A stretch of DNA of 64,000 nucleotides from positions 339,696-403,695 of the forward strand of contig CAWDSS010000010.1 of assembly GCA_963805065.1 (NCBI GenBank). Direction: 5' to 3'. This document shows positions 3,570 through 53,961 of this stretch, one piece after another. Made by a program: the position numbers and the translations under genes. The notes under the pieces were generated by a model. It ran no database searches. It was not told the DNA's origin and saw only the letters and a program-made list of their open reading frames with translations. Position 1 is the stretch's first letter. Each line of letters starts with the position of its first letter. This DNA comes from Candidatus Omnitrophota bacterium (GTDB taxonomy: Bacteria; Omnitrophota; Gorgyraeia; Gygaellales; Profunditerraquicolaceae).

Positions 3570-3642
3570 AGCGGGAGACGGGATTCGAACCCGCGACATT
3601 AACCTTGGCAAGGTTACGCTCTACCAACTGAGCCACTCCCGC
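3570..3642 (-). tRNA. tRNA-Gly(GCC)
   Basis: The reverse complement GCGGGAGTGGCTCAGTTGGTAGAGCGTAACCTTGCCAAGGTTAATGTCGCGGGTTCGAATCCCGTCTCCCGCT folds as a cloverleaf with anticodon loop TTGCCAA. Confidence 0.9.
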
Positions 3643-4036: not shown

Positions 4037-4117
4037 TGGGCGGAAGAGGAGTTGAACCTCCACGGGTTGCCCCACAAGGTCCTAAGCCTTGCGCGTCTGC
4101 CATTCCGCCATCCGCCC
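4037..4117 (-). tRNA. tRNA-Leu(TAG), class II with long variable arm
   Basis: The reverse complement reads GGGCGGATGGCGGAATGGCAGACGCGCAAGGCTTAGGACCTTGTGGGGCAACCCGTGGAGGTTCAACTCCTCTTCCGCCCA. The anticodon loop is CTTAGGA. Confidence 0.85.
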
Positions 4118-4295: not shown

Positions 4296-4368
4296 TGAGC
4301 CTCCCGAGACTCGAACTCGGCACAGGCGGCTTAAAAAGCCGCTGCTCTACCAGATGAGCTAGAGGCCC
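4296..4368 (-). tRNA. tRNA-Lys(TTT)
   Basis: The reverse complement reads GGGCCTCTAGCTCATCTGGTAGAGCAGCGGCTTTTTAAGCCGCCTGTGCCGAGTTCGAGTCTCGGGAGGCTCA. The anticodon loop is TTTTTAA. Confidence 0.9.
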
Positions 4369-43893: not shown

Positions 43894-44505
43894 TTATTCT
43901 TGCTGAAAGTCCATAGTCCCACCTACATCTATTATCTTACCCTGCTTTTTAAGCGGCTCGATTTTACTTATACTTTTAGCTAAAATTCTCTTTTGAATCG
44001 GAGATAATTTATCATAAGCTTTAAACATTTTAAAATACTGTTCTAACACTCTGTAGTTGCCAATCGCTTGTTCTTGCTTGTTCCTAAATAACAAATCTTT
44101 TAACAGCTCTCTTAATTCTTTAAGGATTTCGCCTATCCCTTCAAAGCTTATAATACCAGGAGAACCCATTCTAATATGATAGATCTTGAGAGAATTAGGT
44201 ATCACTTCTTTTTCAAAGAGTTTCCCAATAAGAGGTGAAGAAAAATTATTCGTTCGCAACACCTCAGTTAATAAACTCATCCTTACAAAATGTTGTTTTA
44301 TCGCGTACTTTTTTGGAAAGATATCATCCATATCTCTATGTTTAAGAAGAAGCAACACTTGTTTTTCTTTTCCAATATTGACTTTACAAAGAATTTCATA
44401 TATTTTTGAAATACTTGTTAGAAGAATCTTCAGATTATTTGCTGTCCATTTATTATCCGTTCTAAAAACAAGGAGCTCGAACTTTTTTACAATTTGTGTC
44501 GTCAT
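43894..44505 (-). CDS. Hypothetical protein (203 aa), middle gene of the SIR2 island
   Basis: Intact ORF with SD AAGGAGA. No motif was recognised. Confidence 0.6.
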   Translation of the reverse strand: MTTQIVKKFELLVFRTDNKWTANNLKILLTSISKIYEILCKVNIGKEKQVLLLLKHRDMDDIFPKKYAIKQHFVRMSLLTEVLRTNNFSSPLIGKLFEKEVIPNSLKIYHIRMGSPGIISFEGIGEILKELRELLKDLLFRNKQEQAIGNYRVLEQYFKMFKAYDKLSPIQKRILAKSISKIEPLKKQGKIIDVGGTMDFQQE

Positions 44506-44523: not shown

Positions 44524-45222
44524 TTAAACTTCCGAAATAACAAAATTCATAAAATCTGTGGCATGAGAAGTTAGTCGAAAATAACCTCTTTTGTAATCAT
44601 AAGTTCCAATTGCATAGTCATAAAGTAAATTATAACGCAGAAGATCATTACAAAATGCTTCCGCTTGTGATTCAGTAATATTTAACTTTTCAGATAATTT
44701 TTTAATATCTAAAACACCCTCTGGCAGTCTGTTTTCTACTACGAATAATTTCTCATTATCTATATAAAGTTTTAGAATTTCTATGTGTAGTTCAGATAAG
44801 TCATTTACGATATTTATAAATCTTTCTTTAAAATAATAATCCGATTTACCTTTCTGTATAGAATTAACAAAAATGTTCTTAAAATATCTTACCTTTCTCT
44901 TTTCCCTACATTTAATTGCACTATCATATATTTTTAGAAATAAATAAAACGCGTCTTCGTTATTAAAGAAGTCCTTATCTATTTTACTTTCTTCGAGTTT
45001 TCTTAATGATTCGGCAATTTCTTCAAAAAGAAGGTCTGTTCTTTCTTTTATTGCTTTGGATCCCTTATATGCAAGAAGATTATCTAATAATCCGCCTACT
45101 GGATGAGGAAGCCCCTTAATAAGAACCCTTAGGTCTATGCTGTTATAATATTTTTGGGATCCTTTTACAACGATTTTATCTATTTTTTCAAGTGCTTTGA
45201 TTTTTCTAAAGAATATATTCAT
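44524..45222 (-). CDS. Hypothetical protein (232 aa), first gene of the SIR2 island; possible C-terminal winged-helix
   Basis: Intact ORF. The C-terminal stretch LSEKLNITESQAEAFCNDLLRYNLL looks HTH-like. No SD is present. Confidence 0.55.
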   Translation of the reverse strand: MNIFFRKIKALEKIDKIVVKGSQKYYNSIDLRVLIKGLPHPVGGLLDNLLAYKGSKAIKERTDLLFEEIAESLRKLEESKIDKDFFNNEDAFYLFLKIYDSAIKCREKRKVRYFKNIFVNSIQKGKSDYYFKERFINIVNDLSELHIEILKLYIDNEKLFVVENRLPEGVLDIKKLSEKLNITESQAEAFCNDLLRYNLLYDYAIGTYDYKRGYFRLTSHATDFMNFVISEV

Positions 45223-45621: not shown

Positions 45622-48600
45622 TTAGCGAGTAGGGATGGTGACGCCCTTCCTCAACATCTTCTTCCTTAATTCTTCCAGGCAGAATATCACAACCATGAAA
45701 GCAAACAACATCCCCCACTCCTGCCACCCCAGCCCAATCGTATTAAATATCTTCTGGAAGAATGGCACATAAATCAGCATGCAGGCGAAAGACAACTCAA
45801 AGACAATACCCCAAAGAATCAGCTTATTGCTGAAGAAACCGATTTTAAACGCCGAGAGCTTTTCGCTGCGGCAGGCAAACACATTAGCGATCTGCATCAC
45901 CACAATCCCTATGAACACAATTGTCGCAGCCTTAAGGTGCAAAGGATTGGTGAATGTCGTATCATTAGGTTCAAGCTGCATCCCCGGCCTCCATCCGCCC
46001 TGCAAAAGCACAAAATAATAGGCGCTTAGAACTGCTACTGAATTAAGCAATCCCAGAATTATATAGCCGCGCGAAAGCACTATTTTATCAATAACTCCTT
46101 TTTTCTTCGGCCGCGGCGGAAGCTCCATAATCCCCGGCTCGGGTTTTTCAATACCTAATGCCAGTGCCGGCAAGGTTTCTGTGCCTAAATCTATTGCCAA
46201 AATCTGCATGACTGTAATGGGCACGGGTATTTTAAGCAATACGTAAAAAATAAAGGGTATTGCTTCCGGTACAAGGTGCGCGAATATATAGGTAATGAAT
46301 TTCTTGATATTATCAAATACAGCGCGGCCTTCTTCAATAGCAGCAACAATACTGGCAAAATTATCGTCAATCAAAACCATTTCTGCCGATTCTTTTGCCA
46401 CATCTGTCCCGCGCATACCCATGGCAACACCGATATCAGCTCTTTTTAATGCCGGAGCGTCATTAACTCCGTCCCCTGTAACCGCAACAATATTTCCCAG
46501 CTCCTTAAAAATATTTACCACCCTTAATTTATGCTCTGGGTTAACCCTGGCAAACACAACTTCTTTCTTTGTAAGCTTATCTTTTAACTGCTCATCGCTT
46601 AAATCTGCCAATTCTATTCCTGTAATAACTTCAGGGTTGTCCGAAGCAACAATGCCTACTTGCCGCGCAATTGATAGAGCGGTTATCTGGTAATCGCCTG
46701 TAATCATCACTACCCGGATTCCTGCTTTCCTACAAACAGCGACTGCTTGTTTTACTTCCGGCCTGGGCGGGTCATACATCGCTGCGATACCGATAAAAAT
46801 TAAATCCTTTTCCACTGTCTGCGCTGTTGCATCCGGAATATCTTTAGCTTCCAGGTTACGGCAAGCAAAACCCAGGATGCGTAATCCATCCTGGGCAAAA
46901 TTATCAATCTGACGAATAATCTCTGATTTCTTTTCTGGTGTTAAATCAATACTGTCTTTGCCAACCATGATTTTGCCGGAAAGTTCAAGCAGCTCCTTGG
47001 GAGCTCCCTTCACACAAGCACAAAGCTTCCCCTCCGCAAGCTTATTGATGGTGCTCATTCTTTTACGCACGGATTCAAAAGGAAAACGCTTCTGGAATGG
47101 ATAATTCTGGCGTTCCTTTTCATTATCAAAACCTGCTTTTAGAGCCAGGGTTAATAATGCTCCTTCAGTAGGATCTCCTATTATGCTCCAGTAATTTTGG
47201 GCTTCTGTGGGAGCAACAAGCTTTGCCGTATTGCATAAAACTCCTGCACGGATTAAAATATCCAGATTATCATTCTTAAGGTCATTGCTGGAAATCGCCT
47301 TTCCACTAAGAATAAATTCGCCCTCAGGGTCATAACCGCTGCCTGTAACCTCTATTACCTTATTATTAATCCATATTTTCCTTACGCTCATTTGATTAGT
47401 AGTGAGCGTGCCTGTTTTGTCTGTGCAGATCACATTTGTGCAGCCAAGCGTTTCAACAGAAGAAAGTTTTTTAATTAAGGCGTGCTTCTTTGCCATCCTT
47501 AACACAGCCATGGAAAGCGCAAGCGTGAGTGTCGGCATAAGGCCCTGGGGAACATTAGCCAGGATAATTCCTATGGCAAACATTGCCGAGGCAATCAAGG
47601 TCATCTTGGTAAAAGCCAAACCTACGAAAAAGAAAATAAACCCCATAAGAACTGATATTCCCGCGATTAATTGGCTGATACGGTTTACTTCTCTTTGTAG
47701 CGGGCTTAACTCTTCTTTAACGGTTTGCGTTAAATAAGCGATTTTGCCGATTTCTGTAGCCATGCCAGTAGCAACTACTACGGCTTTACCCATGCCAGAG
47801 GCTACGCTGGTACCTGCGAAAACCAAATTAGGCATTTCCAGCCACAAGAAACCCTTACTATCATGAAAAGCCTCTGCCATCTTATGCGAAAGTTTTGATT
47901 CACCGGAGAAAGCACTGTTATTTACGCGTAGCTCCTGCGCTTCAATCAACCTGGCATCAGCAGGGATGTTATCCCCTTCCTCTATAATAATGATATCTCC
48001 CGGCACAATGTCGCTGGTAGGAACTTTTTTCTCCGTGCCCTCCCGTATTACGCGGGCAAAAGAAGGAATCAACTTATTTAAAGCCTGTATTGCCTTCTCT
48101 GCCTTGGATTCCTGCCAGAAACTGAATATCGCGTTGACAAAAATTACAACTATGCATGCCCATCCTGCTTCAGGCATCTGCGCCAGGAAACAAAGCGCGC
48201 CGCCTACCCACATGAGGATTGCCAACAAATTAGTAAAATTAGATAAGAAACGGATAATCAGGGGAGTTTTCCTTATGGCCTTTAATTTATTCAGGCCGTA
48301 TACTTCCAGGCGTTTTTTGGCAGATACTTCGGAAATCCCGTTATCACTACTGGCAAGCTCCAGATAAATCTCATCCTTGGTTAATGCCAGGAATTCTTCT
48401 CTTTCAATTCCCTTTTGCTTAAACAAGCGAAAAAGCTCATCGTTGTTTGGGGAATTCAGAAGCTGGCTGGTAAATACTTTATTGTTTAGCAGGCTTACTA
48501 TTTTAGAGAGGATTTTTAAATGCAACTCGCTTTCTAAAAGAGGGGTGAGAAAAAGCATGACTAGATTTACAGGTTTTCCGTCCAGAGAAGAAAATTTTAT

Positions 48601-48858
48601 GCCTTGCTTGGAAACGCCCACAAACAAGACTGCCTCTTTTAACTCGGCAATTCTTGCGTGCGGGATAGCCACGCCATTTCCTATGCCGGTAGTGCCCAGT
48701 TTCTCTCTCTTAAGCAGGCTCTCTAAAACCTGTTTTTTATCTTTAATCTTGCGGCACTTATACAGCTGGTCCACAATTTCCAGAATTACGCCTTCTGAGG
48801 TAGTGGATTTTAAACTTGCATTCAACTGCTCTTTAAATACTAAATCGGAAATCTTCAT
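45622..48858 (-). CDS. Cation-transporting P-type ATPase (type II/III-like) with an N-terminal PTS EIIA(Ntr)-type domain
   Basis: ATPase motifs DKTGTLT, TGDGVNDAPAL and MITGD are present. The N-terminal ~150 aa (about 48408-48858) carry GTTGIGNGVAIPHAR..SLDGKPV..HLKILSKIVSLL, paralogous to ptsN in this window. Start ATG 48858 (MKISDLV) follows AAGGAA. Confidence 0.9.
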   Translation of the reverse strand: MKISDLVFKEQLNASLKSTTSEGVILEIVDQLYKCRKIKDKKQVLESLLKREKLGTTGIGNGVAIPHARIAELKEAVLFVGVSKQGIKFSSLDGKPVNLVMLFLTPLLESELHLKILSKIVSLLNNKVFTSQLLNSPNNDELFRLFKQKGIEREEFLALTKDEIYLELASSDNGISEVSAKKRLEVYGLNKLKAIRKTPLIIRFLSNFTNLLAILMWVGGALCFLAQMPEAGWACIVVIFVNAIFSFWQESKAEKAIQALNKLIPSFARVIREGTEKKVPTSDIVPGDIIIIEEGDNIPADARLIEAQELRVNNSAFSGESKLSHKMAEAFHDSKGFLWLEMPNLVFAGTSVASGMGKAVVVATGMATEIGKIAYLTQTVKEELSPLQREVNRISQLIAGISVLMGFIFFFVGLAFTKMTLIASAMFAIGIILANVPQGLMPTLTLALSMAVLRMAKKHALIKKLSSVETLGCTNVICTDKTGTLTTNQMSVRKIWINNKVIEVTGSGYDPEGEFILSGKAISSNDLKNDNLDILIRAGVLCNTAKLVAPTEAQNYWSIIGDPTEGALLTLALKAGFDNEKERQNYPFQKRFPFESVRKRMSTINKLAEGKLCACVKGAPKELLELSGKIMVGKDSIDLTPEKKSEIIRQIDNFAQDGLRILGFACRNLEAKDIPDATAQTVEKDLIFIGIAAMYDPPRPEVKQAVAVCRKAGIRVVMITGDYQITALSIARQVGIVASDNPEVITGIELADLSDEQLKDKLTKKEVVFARVNPEHKLRVVNIFKELGNIVAVTGDGVNDAPALKRADIGVAMGMRGTDVAKESAEMVLIDDNFASIVAAIEEGRAVFDNIKKFITYIFAHLVPEAIPFIFYVLLKIPVPITVMQILAIDLGTETLPALALGIEKPEPGIMELPPRPKKKGVIDKIVLSRGYIILGLLNSVAVLSAYYFVLLQGGWRPGMQLEPNDTTFTNPLHLKAATIVFIGIVVMQIANVFACRSEKLSAFKIGFFSNKLILWGIVFELSFACMLIYVPFFQKIFNTIGLGWQEWGMLFAFMVVIFCLEELRKKMLRKGVTIPTR

Positions 48859-48880
48859 ATGTTCCTTTCTTACGCCTCTA

Positions 48881-48911
48881 CAAAAACTAAACCAGAGAAC
48901 GCCTTCTCTGG
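48881..48911 (-). terminator. Leader (attenuator) terminator just upstream of the ATPase RBS
   Basis: The minus sense reads CCAGAGAA-GGCG-TTCTCTGG followed by TTTAGTTTTTG. An upstream GAGAAC can compete for GTTCTC. Confidence 0.6.
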
Positions 48912-49121
48912 TGTGTTCTCTCAATCGGGCTTACGAGGTTAGCTGTCGGGCTCGGGCTGAGTTACCCTAATCCTTTTTAAGGGATATTCGCCCCAAAAGG
49001 GGCGTACTTGGCAATCCTTTATGCCAAGGTGCGCCCCAAGATCTCATCACAAGATCAATCTTGGTTTCCCCGCTATCTTTTAATTCTACAAAAACAAGAA
49101 TTAAAAGAGATTAAGCATATT
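48912..49121 (-). promoter_or_regulatory. Structured 5' leader of the ATPase gene (unclassified riboswitch or attenuator candidate)
   Basis: Helices include CCAAGAT..ATCTTGG and CTTGGCA..TGCCAAG. CGCCCC can pair either with the upstream GGGGCG or with the downstream TTTT-GGGGCG, which are mutually exclusive. Confidence 0.45.
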
Positions 49122-49127
49122 GAAATA

Positions 49128-49155
49128 ATATTACCATAAAAAACTGTTTTGTCAA
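49128..49155 (-). promoter_or_regulatory. Sigma70-type promoter of the ATPase gene
   Basis: The minus sense reads TTGACA-N16-TAATAT with a TG extension, which implies a leader of about 260 nt. Confidence 0.55.
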
Positions 49156-49213
49156 GTGGGAGACCCATTAATGGAGCTTCCACTTGATTCTGAGGCTGTG
49201 TCGAAGAATCCAG

Positions 49214-49909
49214 CTAAATGTACAAAGATGAATCTTCGCGCGAAACAACCCTGCCGTCCTTAAGATAAATCACCCTCTCTGCCCGCGAGCCTAGCTTAGG
49301 GTTATGCGTGGTCAATATTACGGTTAGATTTTCTTTCTTGTTTAAATCAGCTAGCAAGCCGAAAATATCTTCGCTGCTTTTTGTATCCAGGTTTCCCGTT
49401 GGCTCATCGGCAAAAAGGATCTTTGGCGAGGTAATCAGGGCACGGGCAATAGCCACCCTCTGTTTCTCTCCTCCGGAAAGCTCTTTTGGTAGATGATTTA
49501 TACGCTTTCCCAGGCCGACCCGTTCCAATAATCCTCTAGCCTGCCTAGCCTGCTGCGGCAGTCGCGCAAAAAGCAAAGGCAGTTGCACGTTTTCAATCGC
49601 TGTAAGCGTAGGGATAAGCAAAAAATCCTGAAACACAAACCCTAAAGACTTACGGCGCATTGAGACAAGTATATTCTCCTTTGCCTGCGAAACATCTTTA
49701 CCGAGTATATTTAGACTTCCACTTGTAATTGTAGTCAAGCAGCCAAGGCTATCAAGTAGCGTAGTCTTACCTGAGCCTGATGGACCCATAATGGCGATAA
49801 AATCTCCTTCCACTACCTCAAGGTTAACATTGCGCACAGCATAAATCTCTTCGGCCAAGAGCTTATAAACTTTAGTCAATTCATTTGCTTTAATCACGTA
49901 GTCTTTCAT
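49214..49909 (-). CDS. ABC transporter ATP-binding protein (MacB/LolD/FtsE type)
   Basis: Walker A GPSGSGKTT, signature LSGGEKQR, Walker B ILFADEPT. Confidence 0.9.
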   Translation of the reverse strand: MKDYVIKANELTKVYKLLAEEIYAVRNVNLEVVEGDFIAIMGPSGSGKTTLLDSLGCLTTITSGSLNILGKDVSQAKENILVSMRRKSLGFVFQDFLLIPTLTAIENVQLPLLFARLPQQARQARGLLERVGLGKRINHLPKELSGGEKQRVAIARALITSPKILFADEPTGNLDTKSSEDIFGLLADLNKKENLTVILTTHNPKLGSRAERVIYLKDGRVVSREDSSLYI

Positions 49910-49911
49910 AG

Positions 49912-51099
49912 CTATTCTCCCGCGCGAATCGCTTCTACCGGTTTCATTAGCGACGCCCGCAATGCCGGATATGCTCCGGCTATCAAACCCATAGCCACTG
50001 TGGAAAAAAAGGCAATCAAAAGAAACTCCGGCTTAATCAGCACAAGTCTTCCAGAAGGCGCATAAGGCAAGGTGTGCCGGATAACCTTCTCCACAAGCGC
50101 GCTCCCTGCGGATGCAAAAATCACCCCGAATAATCCGCCGAATACGCAGATCAGTATAGTCTCGGTCCAGATTATTTTAAAAATATCCACAGCAGAAGCA
50201 CCTAATGCTTTCATTACGCCTATTTCGCGCGTGCGCTCAAAGACAGACATCAGGATTGTGTTGGTTACGCCGATAACTGCAATAAAAATAGCGATTAACG
50301 CTATGGAATTGGCCATTGCCCGCGCCGAAGCCACGAGGTTGAGGATCGTGCCGCGCACCTGGGCAAGGCTGACCACCTGAATACCGGGTTCGTTGTAAAG
50401 TGATTCTTCGAATTCACCTATCTGCTGGATATTTTTGAGTTTTATCCCGATACCAGTGAGCTTTCCCGGAAGATTAAATATACGCTGGGCAGTAGCAAGC
50501 GGGATAAAAGTAATCCCGTCATCCTGCGTGCCGGTACGCTGGAATATCCCTTTTACGGTCAGCACCTTGTTGATATTGGGGACAAAAATCTGATCGCCTA
50601 CTAATCGCTGCTCTAATTCCGCAGCCTCATAACCCATGATCGCCTCGTCTACATCCGGAGCGGAAAACCATCCGCCGGATTTGAACTTCGACCAGGGTTT
50701 TAAATCAAGGTAAGATTTATCTATGCCCATATATAGGGCAAATGTGCCGCGCTTCTGCGGCCCGCCCTCCTGATTATAAACGCTAGAAACCAACTGAGGC
50801 GTGATTTTATCTATACGCGGGTCTTTTATTATACGCTTATAAACCGTATCATCCATATAGCGTAGCCCGCCGCCTCCCTGAAGCATAAGCGTTGCTGCCT
50901 CATAGGGACAACCCTTAGCTGTAACTAAAAGATGATAACCAAGTTTATCAATATCCTTATTTAACCCGTTTTGATAACCTGCGTCAAAACCAAAGAGGCT
51001 AACCAAAACAGCTACAGCTACCGCTACTCCTCCAACTGTCAAGGCAGTGCGAATTTTCTTGCGTTTGAGGTTCTTATATGCAACAGAGATAATTTTCAT
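49912..51099 (-). CDS. ABC transporter permease, FtsX/MacB type
   Basis: 395 aa with one N-terminal TM, a large periplasmic loop and three C-terminal TM helices. Confidence 0.8.
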   Translation of the reverse strand: MKIISVAYKNLKRKKIRTALTVGGVAVAVAVLVSLFGFDAGYQNGLNKDIDKLGYHLLVTAKGCPYEAATLMLQGGGGLRYMDDTVYKRIIKDPRIDKITPQLVSSVYNQEGGPQKRGTFALYMGIDKSYLDLKPWSKFKSGGWFSAPDVDEAIMGYEAAELEQRLVGDQIFVPNINKVLTVKGIFQRTGTQDDGITFIPLATAQRIFNLPGKLTGIGIKLKNIQQIGEFEESLYNEPGIQVVSLAQVRGTILNLVASARAMANSIALIAIFIAVIGVTNTILMSVFERTREIGVMKALGASAVDIFKIIWTETILICVFGGLFGVIFASAGSALVEKVIRHTLPYAPSGRLVLIKPEFLLIAFFSTVAMGLIAGAYPALRASLMKPVEAIRAGE

Positions 51100-51470
51100 T
51101 TAAACTCAACTCCTTCTCCGATAACGGAAATTTGATTATACTCTTTTTTCACCTTACCCTGCGTAGCTACACTGCGGCCGATTGCCTGCGGTATGGCTAT
51201 TTCAGAAGGATGCAAATCAACTAATATAACTCCCGTAGCATCCTTAAGCATGAACCATCCTCCGGCAGGGCACTCCTGAACAATTTTTCCCTCCAGCCGT
51301 ACGGACTTTCCGGCGAACTGATCCGGTTGCTTTAAGATTTCTGCCACAGCAGTAACTTTTGTTTGGCTAAGCTGGCTACCGTAAGTTTCCGGCTTCTTAG
51401 CGCAGCCATAGACAACAAACCATATGGAAATCCCCAAAATCAACGCAAAAACGAATAATATTTTCTTCAT
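51096..51470 (-). CDS. Small lipoprotein, function unknown
   Basis: Signal peptide with lipobox-like VVYGC. Overlaps the permease start. Confidence 0.5.
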   Translation of the reverse strand: MKKILFVFALILGISIWFVVYGCAKKPETYGSQLSQTKVTAVAEILKQPDQFAGKSVRLEGKIVQECPAGGWFMLKDATGVILVDLHPSEIAIPQAIGRSVATQGKVKKEYNQISVIGEGVEFK

Positions 51471-51482
51471 CTAAACCCTCCT

Positions 51483-52073
51483 TTATTCGTGTGAAAGTAG
51501 CAGCATATCCAGTAGGATCAGATTTTTCTTCAGCCCACGCAATGTCGCCCGGAAATCCTCAGGGCTATTTGCGCTAGGGTCATTTATAGAAAGATTTCCT
51601 TTTATGAAATCATCAAGGGTTAATCCGTTGAACTTGGAAGTAAATTTGGCATCCATAAACTTACCTGCTTCCGGAGAAGACATCCTCTGGTAGTAGAAAT
51701 TAATTATTTTGCCTTTAGTGTCCGTGGCAATAATAAGCTGAATACCTCCGTATTTACCTTTTTGGTTTACTCCGTGGATATAGCCGATTGCCTCTTTACC
51801 CTTAAGTATGGTGTAAAAAGAATAGGGCACGTCAATATTCTCATAGACCGGCTCAAGCTTATCCTTAAGTTTATCCTCTATTTCTTTCTTCAGGGCCTCT
51901 CCACCCTTTTCCTTAATGGTAATGAAGGTGGTCTTGTAACCAGTGGACTCGGGGAATATTCTTTTTACGTCACGGTCCGGATCATTGAGACTGCAGCCTA
52001 CTGCAGCGTAGGCAACCTCTGCGAAGAAAATCAGAATAGCGAAAACCAATAAAGTTTTAAGAATCTTTTTCAT
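51483..52073 (-). CDS. Secreted protein with an FMN_bind-like (RnfG/NosR-type) domain lacking the flavinylated Thr motif
   Basis: Signal peptide present. GYIHGVNQKGKYGGIQLIIATDTKGKIINF resembles FMN_bind, but the expected SGAT(S/T) position reads PSANS. The assignment is tentative. Confidence 0.4.
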   Translation of the reverse strand: MKKILKTLLVFAILIFFAEVAYAAVGCSLNDPDRDVKRIFPESTGYKTTFITIKEKGGEALKKEIEDKLKDKLEPVYENIDVPYSFYTILKGKEAIGYIHGVNQKGKYGGIQLIIATDTKGKIINFYYQRMSSPEAGKFMDAKFTSKFNGLTLDDFIKGNLSINDPSANSPEDFRATLRGLKKNLILLDMLLLSHE

Positions 52074-52074
52074 C

Positions 52075-53094
52075 TTAAGCCCCCAGGAAATAAAATTGCA
52101 CTACAAATCTATCTTCCGGCTTTGTATCCATCATTCCGAAATCATGCAAGTATGCCGCGCTCAGTTTTGTTGATTGGCTTAGCCTGTATGTTGCACCAAA
52201 AGTAAGCGTAGGCTCATCGCTAGAACTCGTATGTAAATCGTTGATCCATGATTTATACTGCAACTCAAAATCTATGTTCTGATGGGAAGGGAGCGTGTAA
52301 ACTATCTCAGTCAGATAACCCAATACTTCATCCTTATCATCGCGACCGTAAGCACACTCTCCCTTAAAAAGAAACGGGCCGTAAAGATACTGACCGTCTA
52401 AGCCTACTCTATTCTTATTCACCGCATCGGGCGACAACAGTTTATTTTCAGGAAAAGTGCGCATGCCTTCGCTTTCTAGGGTACGGCCGGATAATAATGA
52501 AAGCCCGCCTTGCAAATTTCTACCTTGAGGTGTTCCTATTCTTAGCGTTGCCAGATAGCTGTCGTCTTGGCGGCGTATGCTCATGCCTGATCCTGTTTGC
52601 AGACTGGCTTCGTAATCAAACTTGGGAAACGATCCGCGCATCTGCACACCCCAGTCTTTGTTGAATCCAATATCCTGCTCAGCCAGAGTCTGCAGTAACG
52701 TGCTATGTGTGTCTACCACTGGCTCAAGGCCAAACGAGGGGGTAAAATGCCCACCCCTTATCTTCGCATACTGAGAAAACTTATATTCTAACCAGGCGTT
52801 GTGAATCTCCGCCCCCCATGCCTCATGGGAATTCTTTGTGCTATCATAGGCAGCACGCACCTGAAGGTCAACGGTAAGAAAATCTCCGTAATCTCCGGAA
52901 TACTTACGGTAAAATTCAAAACCCAGGGAGCTATTCATCATGCCGTTTTTATCAATCCAGCGGTCGCGGCTAGAATAGCCACCGATAAGATTTATCTCTT
53001 TGTAAAAAAGCGATTCGCCGGAATAAGCAAATTTATTGAACTCGATAAGAGCAATTAAATTAAAAAGAAAAATTATTATGATTTTTGTCTTCAT
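52075..53094 (-). CDS. Putative outer-membrane beta-barrel protein
   Basis: Signal peptide, alternating aromatic and polar beta-strand pattern, Gly/Tyr-rich composition. Confidence 0.5.
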   Translation of the reverse strand: MKTKIIIIFLFNLIALIEFNKFAYSGESLFYKEINLIGGYSSRDRWIDKNGMMNSSLGFEFYRKYSGDYGDFLTVDLQVRAAYDSTKNSHEAWGAEIHNAWLEYKFSQYAKIRGGHFTPSFGLEPVVDTHSTLLQTLAEQDIGFNKDWGVQMRGSFPKFDYEASLQTGSGMSIRRQDDSYLATLRIGTPQGRNLQGGLSLLSGRTLESEGMRTFPENKLLSPDAVNKNRVGLDGQYLYGPFLFKGECAYGRDDKDEVLGYLTEIVYTLPSHQNIDFELQYKSWINDLHTSSSDEPTLTFGATYRLSQSTKLSAAYLHDFGMMDTKPEDRFVVQFYFLGA

Positions 53095-53169: not shown

Positions 53170-53961
53170 CTAACCGAAGAATTTATCTCCCTGCGCCTTA
53201 ATTATTTGCCGGGCTGCTTTTCTGCCTGATAGAAGCATTCCGCCAAATATCGGCCCCATGCGCGGACCTCCAAATACGGCATTTGCGCACATTCCACAGG
53301 CATAAAGCCCGGGGCAAATTTCTTTGGAGTTCTTTACTATGGTATCTTCTCCTACCTCTGCCCACATCGATTGTTCACCCATAATTTTGCCGGTTTTGGT
53401 ATTCAGCTTAATTCCGGATTTTCGTTCCACAATCCGCGCTACCTCTGCAGGATGTCCGGTAGCATCAACCACGAATTTCGCTCTCATGGTAATCGGATCA
53501 ACATGCAGGTTAGCCATTTCCACAGACGTCCAGTTTAAAACTAAGCCGCAAACACGCTTAGTCCTTACCATTACATCCTCGACACTTAAAAGGTTAAAAA
53601 TCTTTAAACCAGCATGTACGCTTTGCGAACATATCGTAGACACTGCATCTATGGAATCAGCAAGATAATAACCATCTTCATATTTTCTGGTTTTGACTCC
53701 AAACTCATCAAGAATTTTCTTCGCCTCTTTTTGCACTACTATCTGATTAAACATTATCCCGCCGCCCCACATGCCTCCGCCTACGGATAGTTTACGCTCA
53801 AATAAAACTACCTTTACTTTAGCCTTAGCCAAATAGTATCCGCATACCATGCCCGCTGGACCGGCTCCGGCTATTGCCACATCTACATCCAGAGATTCAA
53901 TCAGCTTATTATTGTAAGATTCGATAATTGCCCGTGATATTTTTATTTCATCCAATGCCAT
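53170..53961 (-). CDS. thi4: Thiazole synthase, Thi4 family
   Basis: [34 protein letters not shown] motif; preceded by a TPP riboswitch. Confidence 0.9.

Follow-up and report, generated by a model that had tools for sequence, protein, structure and literature searches.

A predicted c-di-AMP riboswitch with a terminator/antiterminator platform ahead of an EIIA-fused P-type ATPase gene

The DNA analysed here is a window of 64 kb (64,000 nucleotides, the whole stretch that was searched), whose minus strand carries a gene for a P-type ATPase fused to an EIIA domain of the phosphotransferase system (PTS) and, directly ahead of it, a long structured leader. This leader is very probably a cyclic di-AMP (c-di-AMP) riboswitch of the ydaO/yuaA class (Rfam family RF00379), acting as a transcriptional OFF switch of the ATPase gene. 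That the ligand would be c-di-AMP is suggested by family membership, and the OFF polarity by the anatomy of the leader together with the characterised members of kdpFABC, kimA and ktrAB. RNAs of this class have a pseudo-symmetric fold that binds two c-di-AMP molecules, commonly switch genes off with an intrinsic terminator that shares sequence with the 3' tail, and are associated with genes for K+ or osmolyte transport or for the cell wall.

Layout of the leader and its gene

The elements of the unit are listed from promoter to gene; P1 to P7 are the helices of the RF00379 aptamer, and R1 is our own covariance model of the leader.

49150..49155, minus strand: -35 hexamer TTGACA (consensus scan, a consensus match only)
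49128..49136, minus strand: extended -10 element TGgTAATAT (a consensus match only)
48913..49127, minus strand: predicted c-di-AMP riboswitch aptamer including its 3' tail (RF00379, full model 1-134; 105.1 bits with R1)
49113..49116, minus strand: 5' strand of P1, GCUU, with its partner AAGC at 48932-48929 (Rfam alignment)
49074..49110, minus strand: P2, an elongated hairpin UCUCUUUUAAUUCU / AGAAUUAAAAGAUA, ~29 nt beyond the Rfam consensus
49068..49073, minus strand: 5' strand of P3, GCGGGG, with its partner CCUCGU at 48938-48933 (Rfam alignment)
49038..49062, minus strand: hairpin A, AAGAUC...GAUCUU, a variable extension of P4 found in most window-like leaders with differing sequences
48995..49037, minus strand: rare insert made of GGGGCG copy 1, an inner 7-bp hairpin CUUGGCA/UGCCAAG, CGCCCC and UUUU (leader comparison)
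48989..48994, minus strand: GGGGCG copy 2, containing the P5 5' strand GGG, with its partner CCC at 48950-48948 (covariance-model alignment)
48970..48985, minus strand: P6 hairpin AUCC-CUUAAAAA-GGAU (Rfam alignment)
48954..48967, minus strand: P7 hairpin GGGU-AACUCA-GCCC (Rfam alignment)
48920..48923, minus strand: predicted pseudoknot strand UGAG in the 3' tail, with its partner CUCA in the P7 loop at 48961-48958
48913..48921, minus strand: antiterminator 5' strand AGAGAACAC, with its partner GCGUUCUCU at 48902-48894 and 8/9 positions paired (covariation and folding of prefixes)
48881..48912, minus strand: predicted intrinsic terminator, with the stem ACCAGAGAA-GGCG-UUCUCUGGU at 48912-48891 (9 bp, loop GGCG) and then UUAGUUUUUG at 48890-48881 (terminator prediction)
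48862..48868, minus strand: ribosome-binding site (RBS) AAAGGAA, 3 nt ahead of the ATG at 48858 (read from the sequence)
45622..48858, minus strand: fusion gene of 1078 aa, PTS EIIA (Fru/Ntr-type) at aa 9-148 and a type-II P-type ATPase (Pfam, NCBIfam)

The predicted sigma-70-type promoter (49155-49128) combines a 16-nt spacer and 10/12 consensus matches with an extended -10 TG. Transcription would start about 7 nt past the -10 box (~49121), which puts ~263 nt of leader before the ATG. For the 258-nt leader the folding energy is -88.2 kcal/mol, as compared with -65.5 +/- 4.5 kcal/mol for dinucleotide shuffles (z = -5.0), and 0/200 shuffles were as good. A first-pass annotation made from the sequence had described this promoter, a leader of about 260 nt with strong helices, two sets of competing pairings, an intrinsic terminator directly before the RBS and an EIIA-ATPase gene downstream. 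All of these features were recovered on the minus strand, at the coordinates it gave or a few bases away. The helices map to RF00379 elements, CGCCCC can pair with either GGGGCG segment, the second competing set, around GAGAAC, is the expression platform, the 9-bp terminator stem is followed by UUAGUUUUUG, and the gene encodes PTS_EIIA_2 and a complete P-type ATPase (Pfam).

Identity and conserved structure of the leader RNA

When the whole window was scanned with Rfam 15 at the gathering threshold, RF00379 matched at 49127..48913 (-) with 73.1 bits against a gathering score of 38 (E = 4.8e-15), covering model positions 1-134 of 134. After P2 and the P4 insert were taken out, the core of the window leader showed 79 positions identical to the 108-nt crystallised c-di-AMP riboswitch. 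The invariant columns of alignment A4, namely GCGGGG.A.CC, GGGGCGAAU, UAGGG and CCCGAGCCCG.CAGCUAACCUCG, are core nucleotides of the c-di-AMP class and are intact in the window. A more permissive scan of the 601-nt region 48700-49300 against all 4227 Rfam models (E <= 1) returned RF00379 as the only significant match and none to a metal-ion riboswitch family; the three other matches belong to unrelated families (E = 0.47-0.94).

For comparison, 80 metagenomic fusion-gene loci were collected with the patterns MPEAGWAC and [IV]NA[IV]FSFW, derived from a 251-aa N-terminal alignment, together with at least five genomic loci and seven distinct loci of the closest relatives (labelled L below). With Rfam, a full RF00379 match was found directly upstream of the gene in 17/20 of the first metagenomic loci and in both close genome relatives, L001 (a Phycisphaerae metagenome-assembled genome, MAG) and L002. 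R1, which was built from trimmed window-like cores with a hand-written structure following the Rfam helices, detected a complete riboswitch directly upstream of orthologous fusion genes in 45/80 metagenomic loci and in 7/7 closest relatives. Six loci with at least 58% identity carry no riboswitch and have unrelated neighbours, and for two loci the upstream sequence is too short. Since all loci with 52% identity or less, including the Fibrobacter fusions, have no riboswitch, and the 15 loci of non-fusion ATPases likewise have none, the association is specific to one clade of the fusion family.

In three loci (L087, L091 and L123) the riboswitch is situated ~1.4 kb upstream, and a gene for a TrkH-family K+ transporter (Pfam 183-195 bits) stands between it and the ATPase gene. 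The same trkH-ATPase pair is present in L107, L111 and L126, where the locus ends ahead of any leader. The TrkH gene is co-operonic with the ATPase gene in the first three loci, and probably in all six. The window itself has no such TrkH operon, as its ATG comes directly past the terminator.

Two subtypes of leader can be distinguished. Window-like leaders begin with 'GCUUAAU...' and have the tail GAGAGAA or GAGGAAUG; the second subtype begins with 'AGCCGA...' and has the tail UUUGAAAGGGCAAUGG. Plain MAFFT and RNAalifold applied to the mixed subtypes misaligned P6 and P7 and gave a wrong P1, and this alignment was replaced by one of trimmed cores. Over 47 distinct leaders, 96.9% of the cells hold a standard pair, against 82.1% in column shuffles and at most 50% when the partners were slid by 1-3 columns; because the model structure guided the alignment, the paired fraction is somewhat too high, and the slid-partner control together with the many pair types is more telling. 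Compensatory changes occur in 18/30 pairs, and 0/500 shuffles reach any of the observed measures. P3 and P5 are 100% paired and P1 is 97.7% paired with double changes in 2/3 pairs, while compensatory changes affect 7/7 modelled pairs of P2 and 5/5 of P6. The short P4 (CA/UG) encloses ~60-70 extra nt with two hairpins. In the window, 2/30 modelled pairs are non-canonical and all core helices are intact.

The P6 hairpin varies in length within the clade. Insertions of 71 and 34 nt are found in L117:1235-1431 and L108:1270-1432, as compared with 10-18 nt in most leaders, and P6 is thus another expandable site.

The first-pass annotation had suggested a metal-sensing and perhaps new RNA, arguing from the ion pump encoded downstream. 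A metal- or ion-sensing riboswitch (Mg2+, Mn2+, Ni/Co, Na+, Li+ or K+) would suit a cation-pumping ATPase, and ion transporters are often controlled by ion-sensing RNAs, such as the Na+ riboswitches (PMC9337991). However, even the permissive scan shows no ion-riboswitch family (best other match E = 0.47), RF00379 and its terminator fully account for the length of the leader, and the core nucleotides of the c-di-AMP class are preserved, so that an ion sensor is left with next to no probability. Inferring an ion-sensing RNA from an ion pump was a sensible step that led to the wrong kind of signal: the full-length match belongs to a second-messenger class, and the RNA would sense a messenger reporting K+/osmotic status and not an ion. 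Novelty was disproved as well, because the region matches a known family. The other expectations proved sound. The leader had not been matched to M-box, yybP-ykoY or NiCo, which holds in the Rfam scan and extends to the Na+ and Li+ classes; its helices are conserved and covary in related leaders; and it has the organization of a transcription-attenuating riboswitch, with a conserved platform whose antiterminator covaries in relatives, as described below.

Expression platform and proposed mechanism

At the 3' end of the leader, AGAGAAC(AC) (48921-48913) and ACCAGAGAA (48912-48904) are each complementary to UUCUCUGG(U) (48899-48891). With shorter extents, AGAGAAC (48921-48915) and CCAGAGAA (48911-48904) compete for UUCUCUGG (48899-48892). 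The terminator ACCAGAGAA-N4-UUCUCUGG-U6 is almost invariant in 18 window-like leaders, and its stem sequence is kept in 17/17 aligned ones. The tail AGAGAA-y1y2y3 pairs with x1x2x3-UUCUCU, in which x1-x3 are nucleotides of the terminator loop and therefore not constrained by the terminator stem. These pairs were counted per sequence, since the MAFFT alignment A6 misplaced a 1-nt indel in this register, and are distributed as follows in the 18 leaders:

y1:x3: U-A in 11, C-G in 5, U-G in 2
y2:x2: G-C in 10, A-U in 2, A.C mismatch in 6
y3:x1: U-A in 8, C-G in 7, U-G in 2, C.C mismatch in 1

Covariation of the y and x positions is direct evolutionary support for the antiterminator. In the window, the calculated energies are ~-12.8 kcal/mol for the terminator hairpin, -8.5 for the antiterminator and -16.0 for the best fold of the whole 3' segment. 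When successive prefixes of the transcript were folded, the antiterminator prevailed as long as the final two G of the 3' strand were still missing; once they were out, the terminator won (-11.3 vs -9.9 kcal/mol). A free tail would thus get a head start via the loop nucleotides.

The position of the pseudoknot was taken from the sequence of the crystal construct in PMC5393176 and from complementarity. In that construct, loop and tail are complementary in the same arrangement (CUCCUUCG/CGAAGGAG; PMC5393176). In both leader subtypes the P7 loop complements the tail, although not with the same letters: one uses CUUUCAA/UUGAAAG, the other CUCA/UGAG or UUCUC/GAGGA. The mean for native loop-tail duplexes is -4.77 kcal/mol, against -3.83 +/- 0.25 kcal/mol for swapped partners, and 0/200 swaps were as low; the complementarity is partner-specific. 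In the window, UGAG (48923-48920) overlaps the antiterminator strand (48921-48913) by 2 nt.

The following mechanism can be proposed. The aptamer, P1-P7, would be made first, and its 3' tail UUGAGAGAACAC would then have two possible partners. At high c-di-AMP, the bound ligand would stabilise the aptamer and, with it, the pseudoknot in which the P7 loop (CUCA) pairs with the tail (UGAG). The tail would then be unavailable, leaving the terminator ACCAGAGAA/UUCUCUGGU and its U-tract to form, and transcription would stop ahead of the pump gene. At low c-di-AMP, the free tail would seed on the terminator-loop nucleotides, which are first out of the polymerase, and zip into the terminator 3' strand (AGAGAACAC/GCGUUCUCU), so that no terminator would form and read-through would allow the pump to be made. 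Such a mechanism would match the behaviour of characterised members. Upstream of kdpFABC, c-di-AMP promotes intrinsic termination, and low c-di-AMP under K+ limitation leads to read-through (PMC6488665); kimA and ktrAB are repressed by a c-di-AMP riboswitch (PMC11302148), and the Dehalobacter member terminates in vitro with c-di-AMP (PMC9337991).

Other arrangements of the 3' region are found among the relatives. Leaders of the second subtype (L103:1296-1503, L105, L001:2793-3003 and ~25 other loci; tail UUUGAAAGGGCAAUGG) have a different terminator, ACUGCCGCCCGGCAGUUUUUUU, and past it a segment, AUUGCGCCCUUUUGCCC, that is complementary to the tail and adjoins the RBS, which suggests a different or dual (transcription and translation) platform. 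In L100:1351-1400 (= L163:1051-1100), an extra hairpin CACACCAAUCC...GGAUUGGGUG lies between P1 and the pseudoknot/antiterminator strand, and the true tail of L100/L163 is therefore ~50 nt downstream of the model end.

The GGGGCG insert is the most unusual part of the window leader. Compared with leaders of the L083 type (...GAUCUU-GGGGCG-AAUAUC...), the window has 42 extra nt between direct repeats of GGGGCG. Among ~58 leaders, the insert is present only in the window and in the L100/L163 lineage; the close relatives L162, L165 and L167 do not carry it. Its CGCCCC (49004-48999) complements both copy 1 (49037-49032), forming hairpin B, and copy 2 (48994-48989). In the covariance-model alignment (topology I), copy 2 forms P5 and hairpins A and B are located in the P4 loop; copy 2 there also gives the P4-closing G and is followed by the conserved CGAAU junction. 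In a second topology (II), copy 1 could supply P4/P5 and the insert would interrupt the CG^AAU junction. Hairpin B was also considered as a dispersed repeat or miniature mobile element, and this was rejected, no second copy being present in the 64-kb window or in 170 loci, a count that sets aside the copies of the L100/L163/L164 lineage and the window's own copy in L081.

It is conceivable that the riboswitch fold is kept and its behaviour altered by the insert, GGGGCG/CGCCCC/GGGGCG acting as a three-strand folding switch, that is, a kinetic trap or timer for the P5 strand that gates or modulates the c-di-AMP response. The alternative pairing of CGCCCC is real, and locally the trapped state has an advantage of 6.4 kcal/mol over closed hairpin B, in the window as in L100. 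The three 6-mers are identical in these two leaders, whereas their inner helices differ by one compensatory change (A-U to C-G), and homology with L083-type leaders would equally allow copy 1 to serve as the P4/P5 strand. However, an insert confined to two lineages, and without which L162, L165 and L167 work, is dispensable for the class. Moreover, two sequences cannot demonstrate selection on a triple complementarity, a duplication scar would look identical, the energies ignore tertiary and ligand terms, and the order of synthesis favours hairpin B. We therefore regard a folding switch as improbable and retain the c-di-AMP OFF switch as the preferred reading.

Several points weigh against this preferred reading. 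Local energies favour the pairing of CGCCCC with copy 2 (-35.8 vs -29.4 kcal/mol in the window, -38.5 vs -32.1 in L100), and since CGCCCC would trap copy 2, the strand assigned to P5, the insert might impair or modulate this aptamer. With 4 bp and -3.3 kcal/mol, the window pseudoknot CUCA/UGAG is short. An AG breaks the U-tract (UUUAGUUUUU), where relatives have at least six uninterrupted U, and this makes the termination efficiency in the window uncertain. The promoter is only a consensus match, which is not evidence of function, and no terminator was detected past the upstream ABC gene (ends 49214) and before the promoter, so that read-through from the ABC gene array into the riboswitch is possible. 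A regular-expression search of the 64-kb window found no diadenylate cyclase motif, which is uninformative because the genome is far larger. Finally, it is only by inference that we ascribe ligand binding and termination control to this RNA.

The interrupted U-tract, the short pseudoknot and the large aptamer insert could also be read as signs of a decaying or non-functional relic, the gene being controlled mainly by read-through from the upstream ABC operon or by the EIIA domain alone. Such a relic would fit with the lack of a predicted terminator between the ABC ATPase gene and the promoter and with the six orthologous loci devoid of a riboswitch. However, the full model is matched with a score far above the gathering threshold, all core helices are intact, the antiterminator and terminator follow the family-wide conserved pattern, and the arrangement is strongly conserved in the nearest relatives. 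Decay of the element is thus very unlikely, and a working c-di-AMP riboswitch is the better explanation of the locus.

The regulated pump and comparison with known systems

The EIIA domain of the fusion protein matches PTS_EIIA_2 with 110 bits against a cut-off of 27 (Pfam), and remains below the NCBIfam cut-offs of both TIGR01419 (PtsN; 84.5 vs 138.7) and TIGR00848 (FruA IIA; 100.5 vs 103.5). Its His67, in the motif AIPHAR, is invariant in 15 homologues. The ATPase part is complete, with Cation_ATPase_N, E1-E2, HAD and Cation_ATPase_C (Pfam). Its best NCBIfam match is TIGR01106 (Na,H/K IIC alpha subunit), below the cut-off (636 vs 946 bits), and the nearest solved structures are the alpha subunits of the H,K- and Na,K-ATPases (~515-550 bits), followed by Listeria LMCA1 (498) and SERCA (457). 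The homologues form >120 clusters at >=70% identity, and the organisms named for them are Candidatus Omnitrophota or Phycisphaerae.

The canonical P2C cation site was not found in this pump. Transmembrane segment (TM) 4 reads VPQGL in place of PEGL (Glu to Gln), TM5 reads YIFAHLVPE vs YTLTSNIPE (Ser to His, Asn to Leu, Glu kept), and TM6 reads IDLGTE vs IDLGTD (second Asp to Glu). We take the cation-site residues of the Na,K-ATPase to be the Glu of TM4 PEGL, Ser775/Asn776 and a Glu of TM5, and Asp...Asp808 of TM6, so that the window pump would have His, Leu and Glu at Ser775, Asn776 and Asp808. To our knowledge, this ion site differs from that of every characterised P2 ATPase, and the substrate of the pump is thus not readable by homology. 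These positions correspond to residues ~437, ~856-864 and ~888-893 of the pump, and the relatives P0104 and P0120 retain VPEGL.

c-di-AMP riboswitches characteristically repress K+ importers. For this reason, the pump most likely takes part in K+ acquisition or osmotic adaptation, plausibly as a K+ importer. Three independent clues from the context point to K+ acquisition, namely the predicted repression by c-di-AMP, the TrkH gene in the operon of some relatives and the PtsN-like EIIA domain; as a free protein, PtsN controls the expression of Kdp as well as K+ transporters (PMC9239096, PMC11808508). The divergent ion site cautions against over-reading the pump as a K+ importer. A broader proposal is that the EIIA-fused Na,K/H,K-ATPase-like pump is an unrecognised K+-uptake (or K+/Na+ exchange) ATPase of Omnitrophota/Phycisphaerae, controlled transcriptionally by c-di-AMP and through phosphorylation of its PTS(Ntr)-type EIIA, with the GGGGCG insert as a three-strand folding switch in the lineage; we offer this as a tentative and rather doubtful possibility. 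An EIIA-fused P2-type ATPase linked to a c-di-AMP riboswitch was not found in the searchable literature.

Downstream of the ATPase gene, the open reading frames 44524-45222 (-, 232 aa) and 43894-44505 (-, 203 aa) match nothing in Pfam or NCBIfam and are unlikely to be conserved partners, since the downstream neighbours differ among relatives. Upstream, a same-strand gene array (49214-53094, -) ends 59 nt ahead of the riboswitch promoter and encodes a Porin_4-like protein, a 196-aa open reading frame without domains, a weak BOF-fold protein, a MacB/FtsX-type permease and a LolD/MacB-like ABC ATPase. In one related locus (L170:1-5625), another P-type ATPase gene, without the fusion, stands ahead of the fusion ATPase gene, which is followed by a DUF4118-HisKA-HATPase kinase, with the C-terminal architecture of KdpD, and an OmpR-type response regulator. 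Elsewhere in the window, a thiamine pyrophosphate (TPP) riboswitch (RF00059, 54021-54132, -; 57.9 bits vs a gathering score of 54.3) immediately precedes a Thi4-family thiazole synthase gene (53170-53961, -; Pfam 282 bits), which is an ordinary arrangement. A cluster of three tRNA genes is found at 3570-3642, 4037-4117 and 4296-4368 (-; RF00005, 55-72 bits).

The RNA itself matters little, since it belongs to a textbook class that any routine Rfam scan would pick up immediately; what makes the locus interesting is the regulated gene, together with the host lineage. The leaders would place c-di-AMP-responsive control in poorly studied, mostly uncultured Omnitrophota/Phycisphaerae-like MAGs. For a large uncharacterised pump family, the predicted c-di-AMP repression, the TrkH gene in the operon and the PtsN-like domain provide a functional lead towards K+ homeostasis. 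In addition, the platform neatly illustrates an antiterminator that would seed on terminator-loop nucleotides, with covariation in its support.

Compared with the crystallised riboswitch (PDB 4QLM/4QLN), the window leader has the same complementarity of P7 loop and 3' tail, CUCCUUCG/CGAAGGAG there and CUCA/UGAG here. The crystal construct lacks both a P2 hairpin and a P4 extension, and its pseudoknot is longer, whereas the window leader has a long P2 and insertions in P4. In the tandem Na+/c-di-AMP riboswitch of Dehalobacter sp. CF (PMC9337991), as in the window, a c-di-AMP aptamer is followed by its own terminator, and there c-di-AMP turns expression off in vitro. The Dehalobacter system is a two-input gate of an osmolyte-synthesis gene, whereas the window has a single aptamer and no match to a Na+ riboswitch. 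For kdpFABC of Bacillus thuringiensis and B. anthracis (PMC6488665, PMC11302148), termination with c-di-AMP and read-through at low c-di-AMP were shown experimentally. KdpB is a P1A ATPase working with the channel subunit KdpA, unlike the single-chain P2 (Na,K/H,K-like) pump of the window with its N-terminal EIIA.

The B. subtilis leaders of kimA (ydaO) and ktrAB (yuaA) differ from the window leader in that the latter has an elongated P2, a two-hairpin insertion in P4 and a pseudoknot of 4 bp, and precedes a gene for an EIIA-fused P2-type ATPase. Judging from the named homologues and from L001, the host would be a diderm, probably of the Omnitrophota/Phycisphaerae type, whereas members of the kimA/ktrAB type come from Firmicutes/Actinobacteria. 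In the three related trkH loci, the first regulated gene belongs to the TrkH/KtrB family, in parallel with ktrAB (PMC11302148). Both the B. subtilis and the window leaders have the same aptamer P1-P7, the pseudoknot and the GGGGCGAAU and CAGCUAACCUCG cores, and the predicted OFF logic via an intrinsic terminator and the theme of K+ uptake are common to both.

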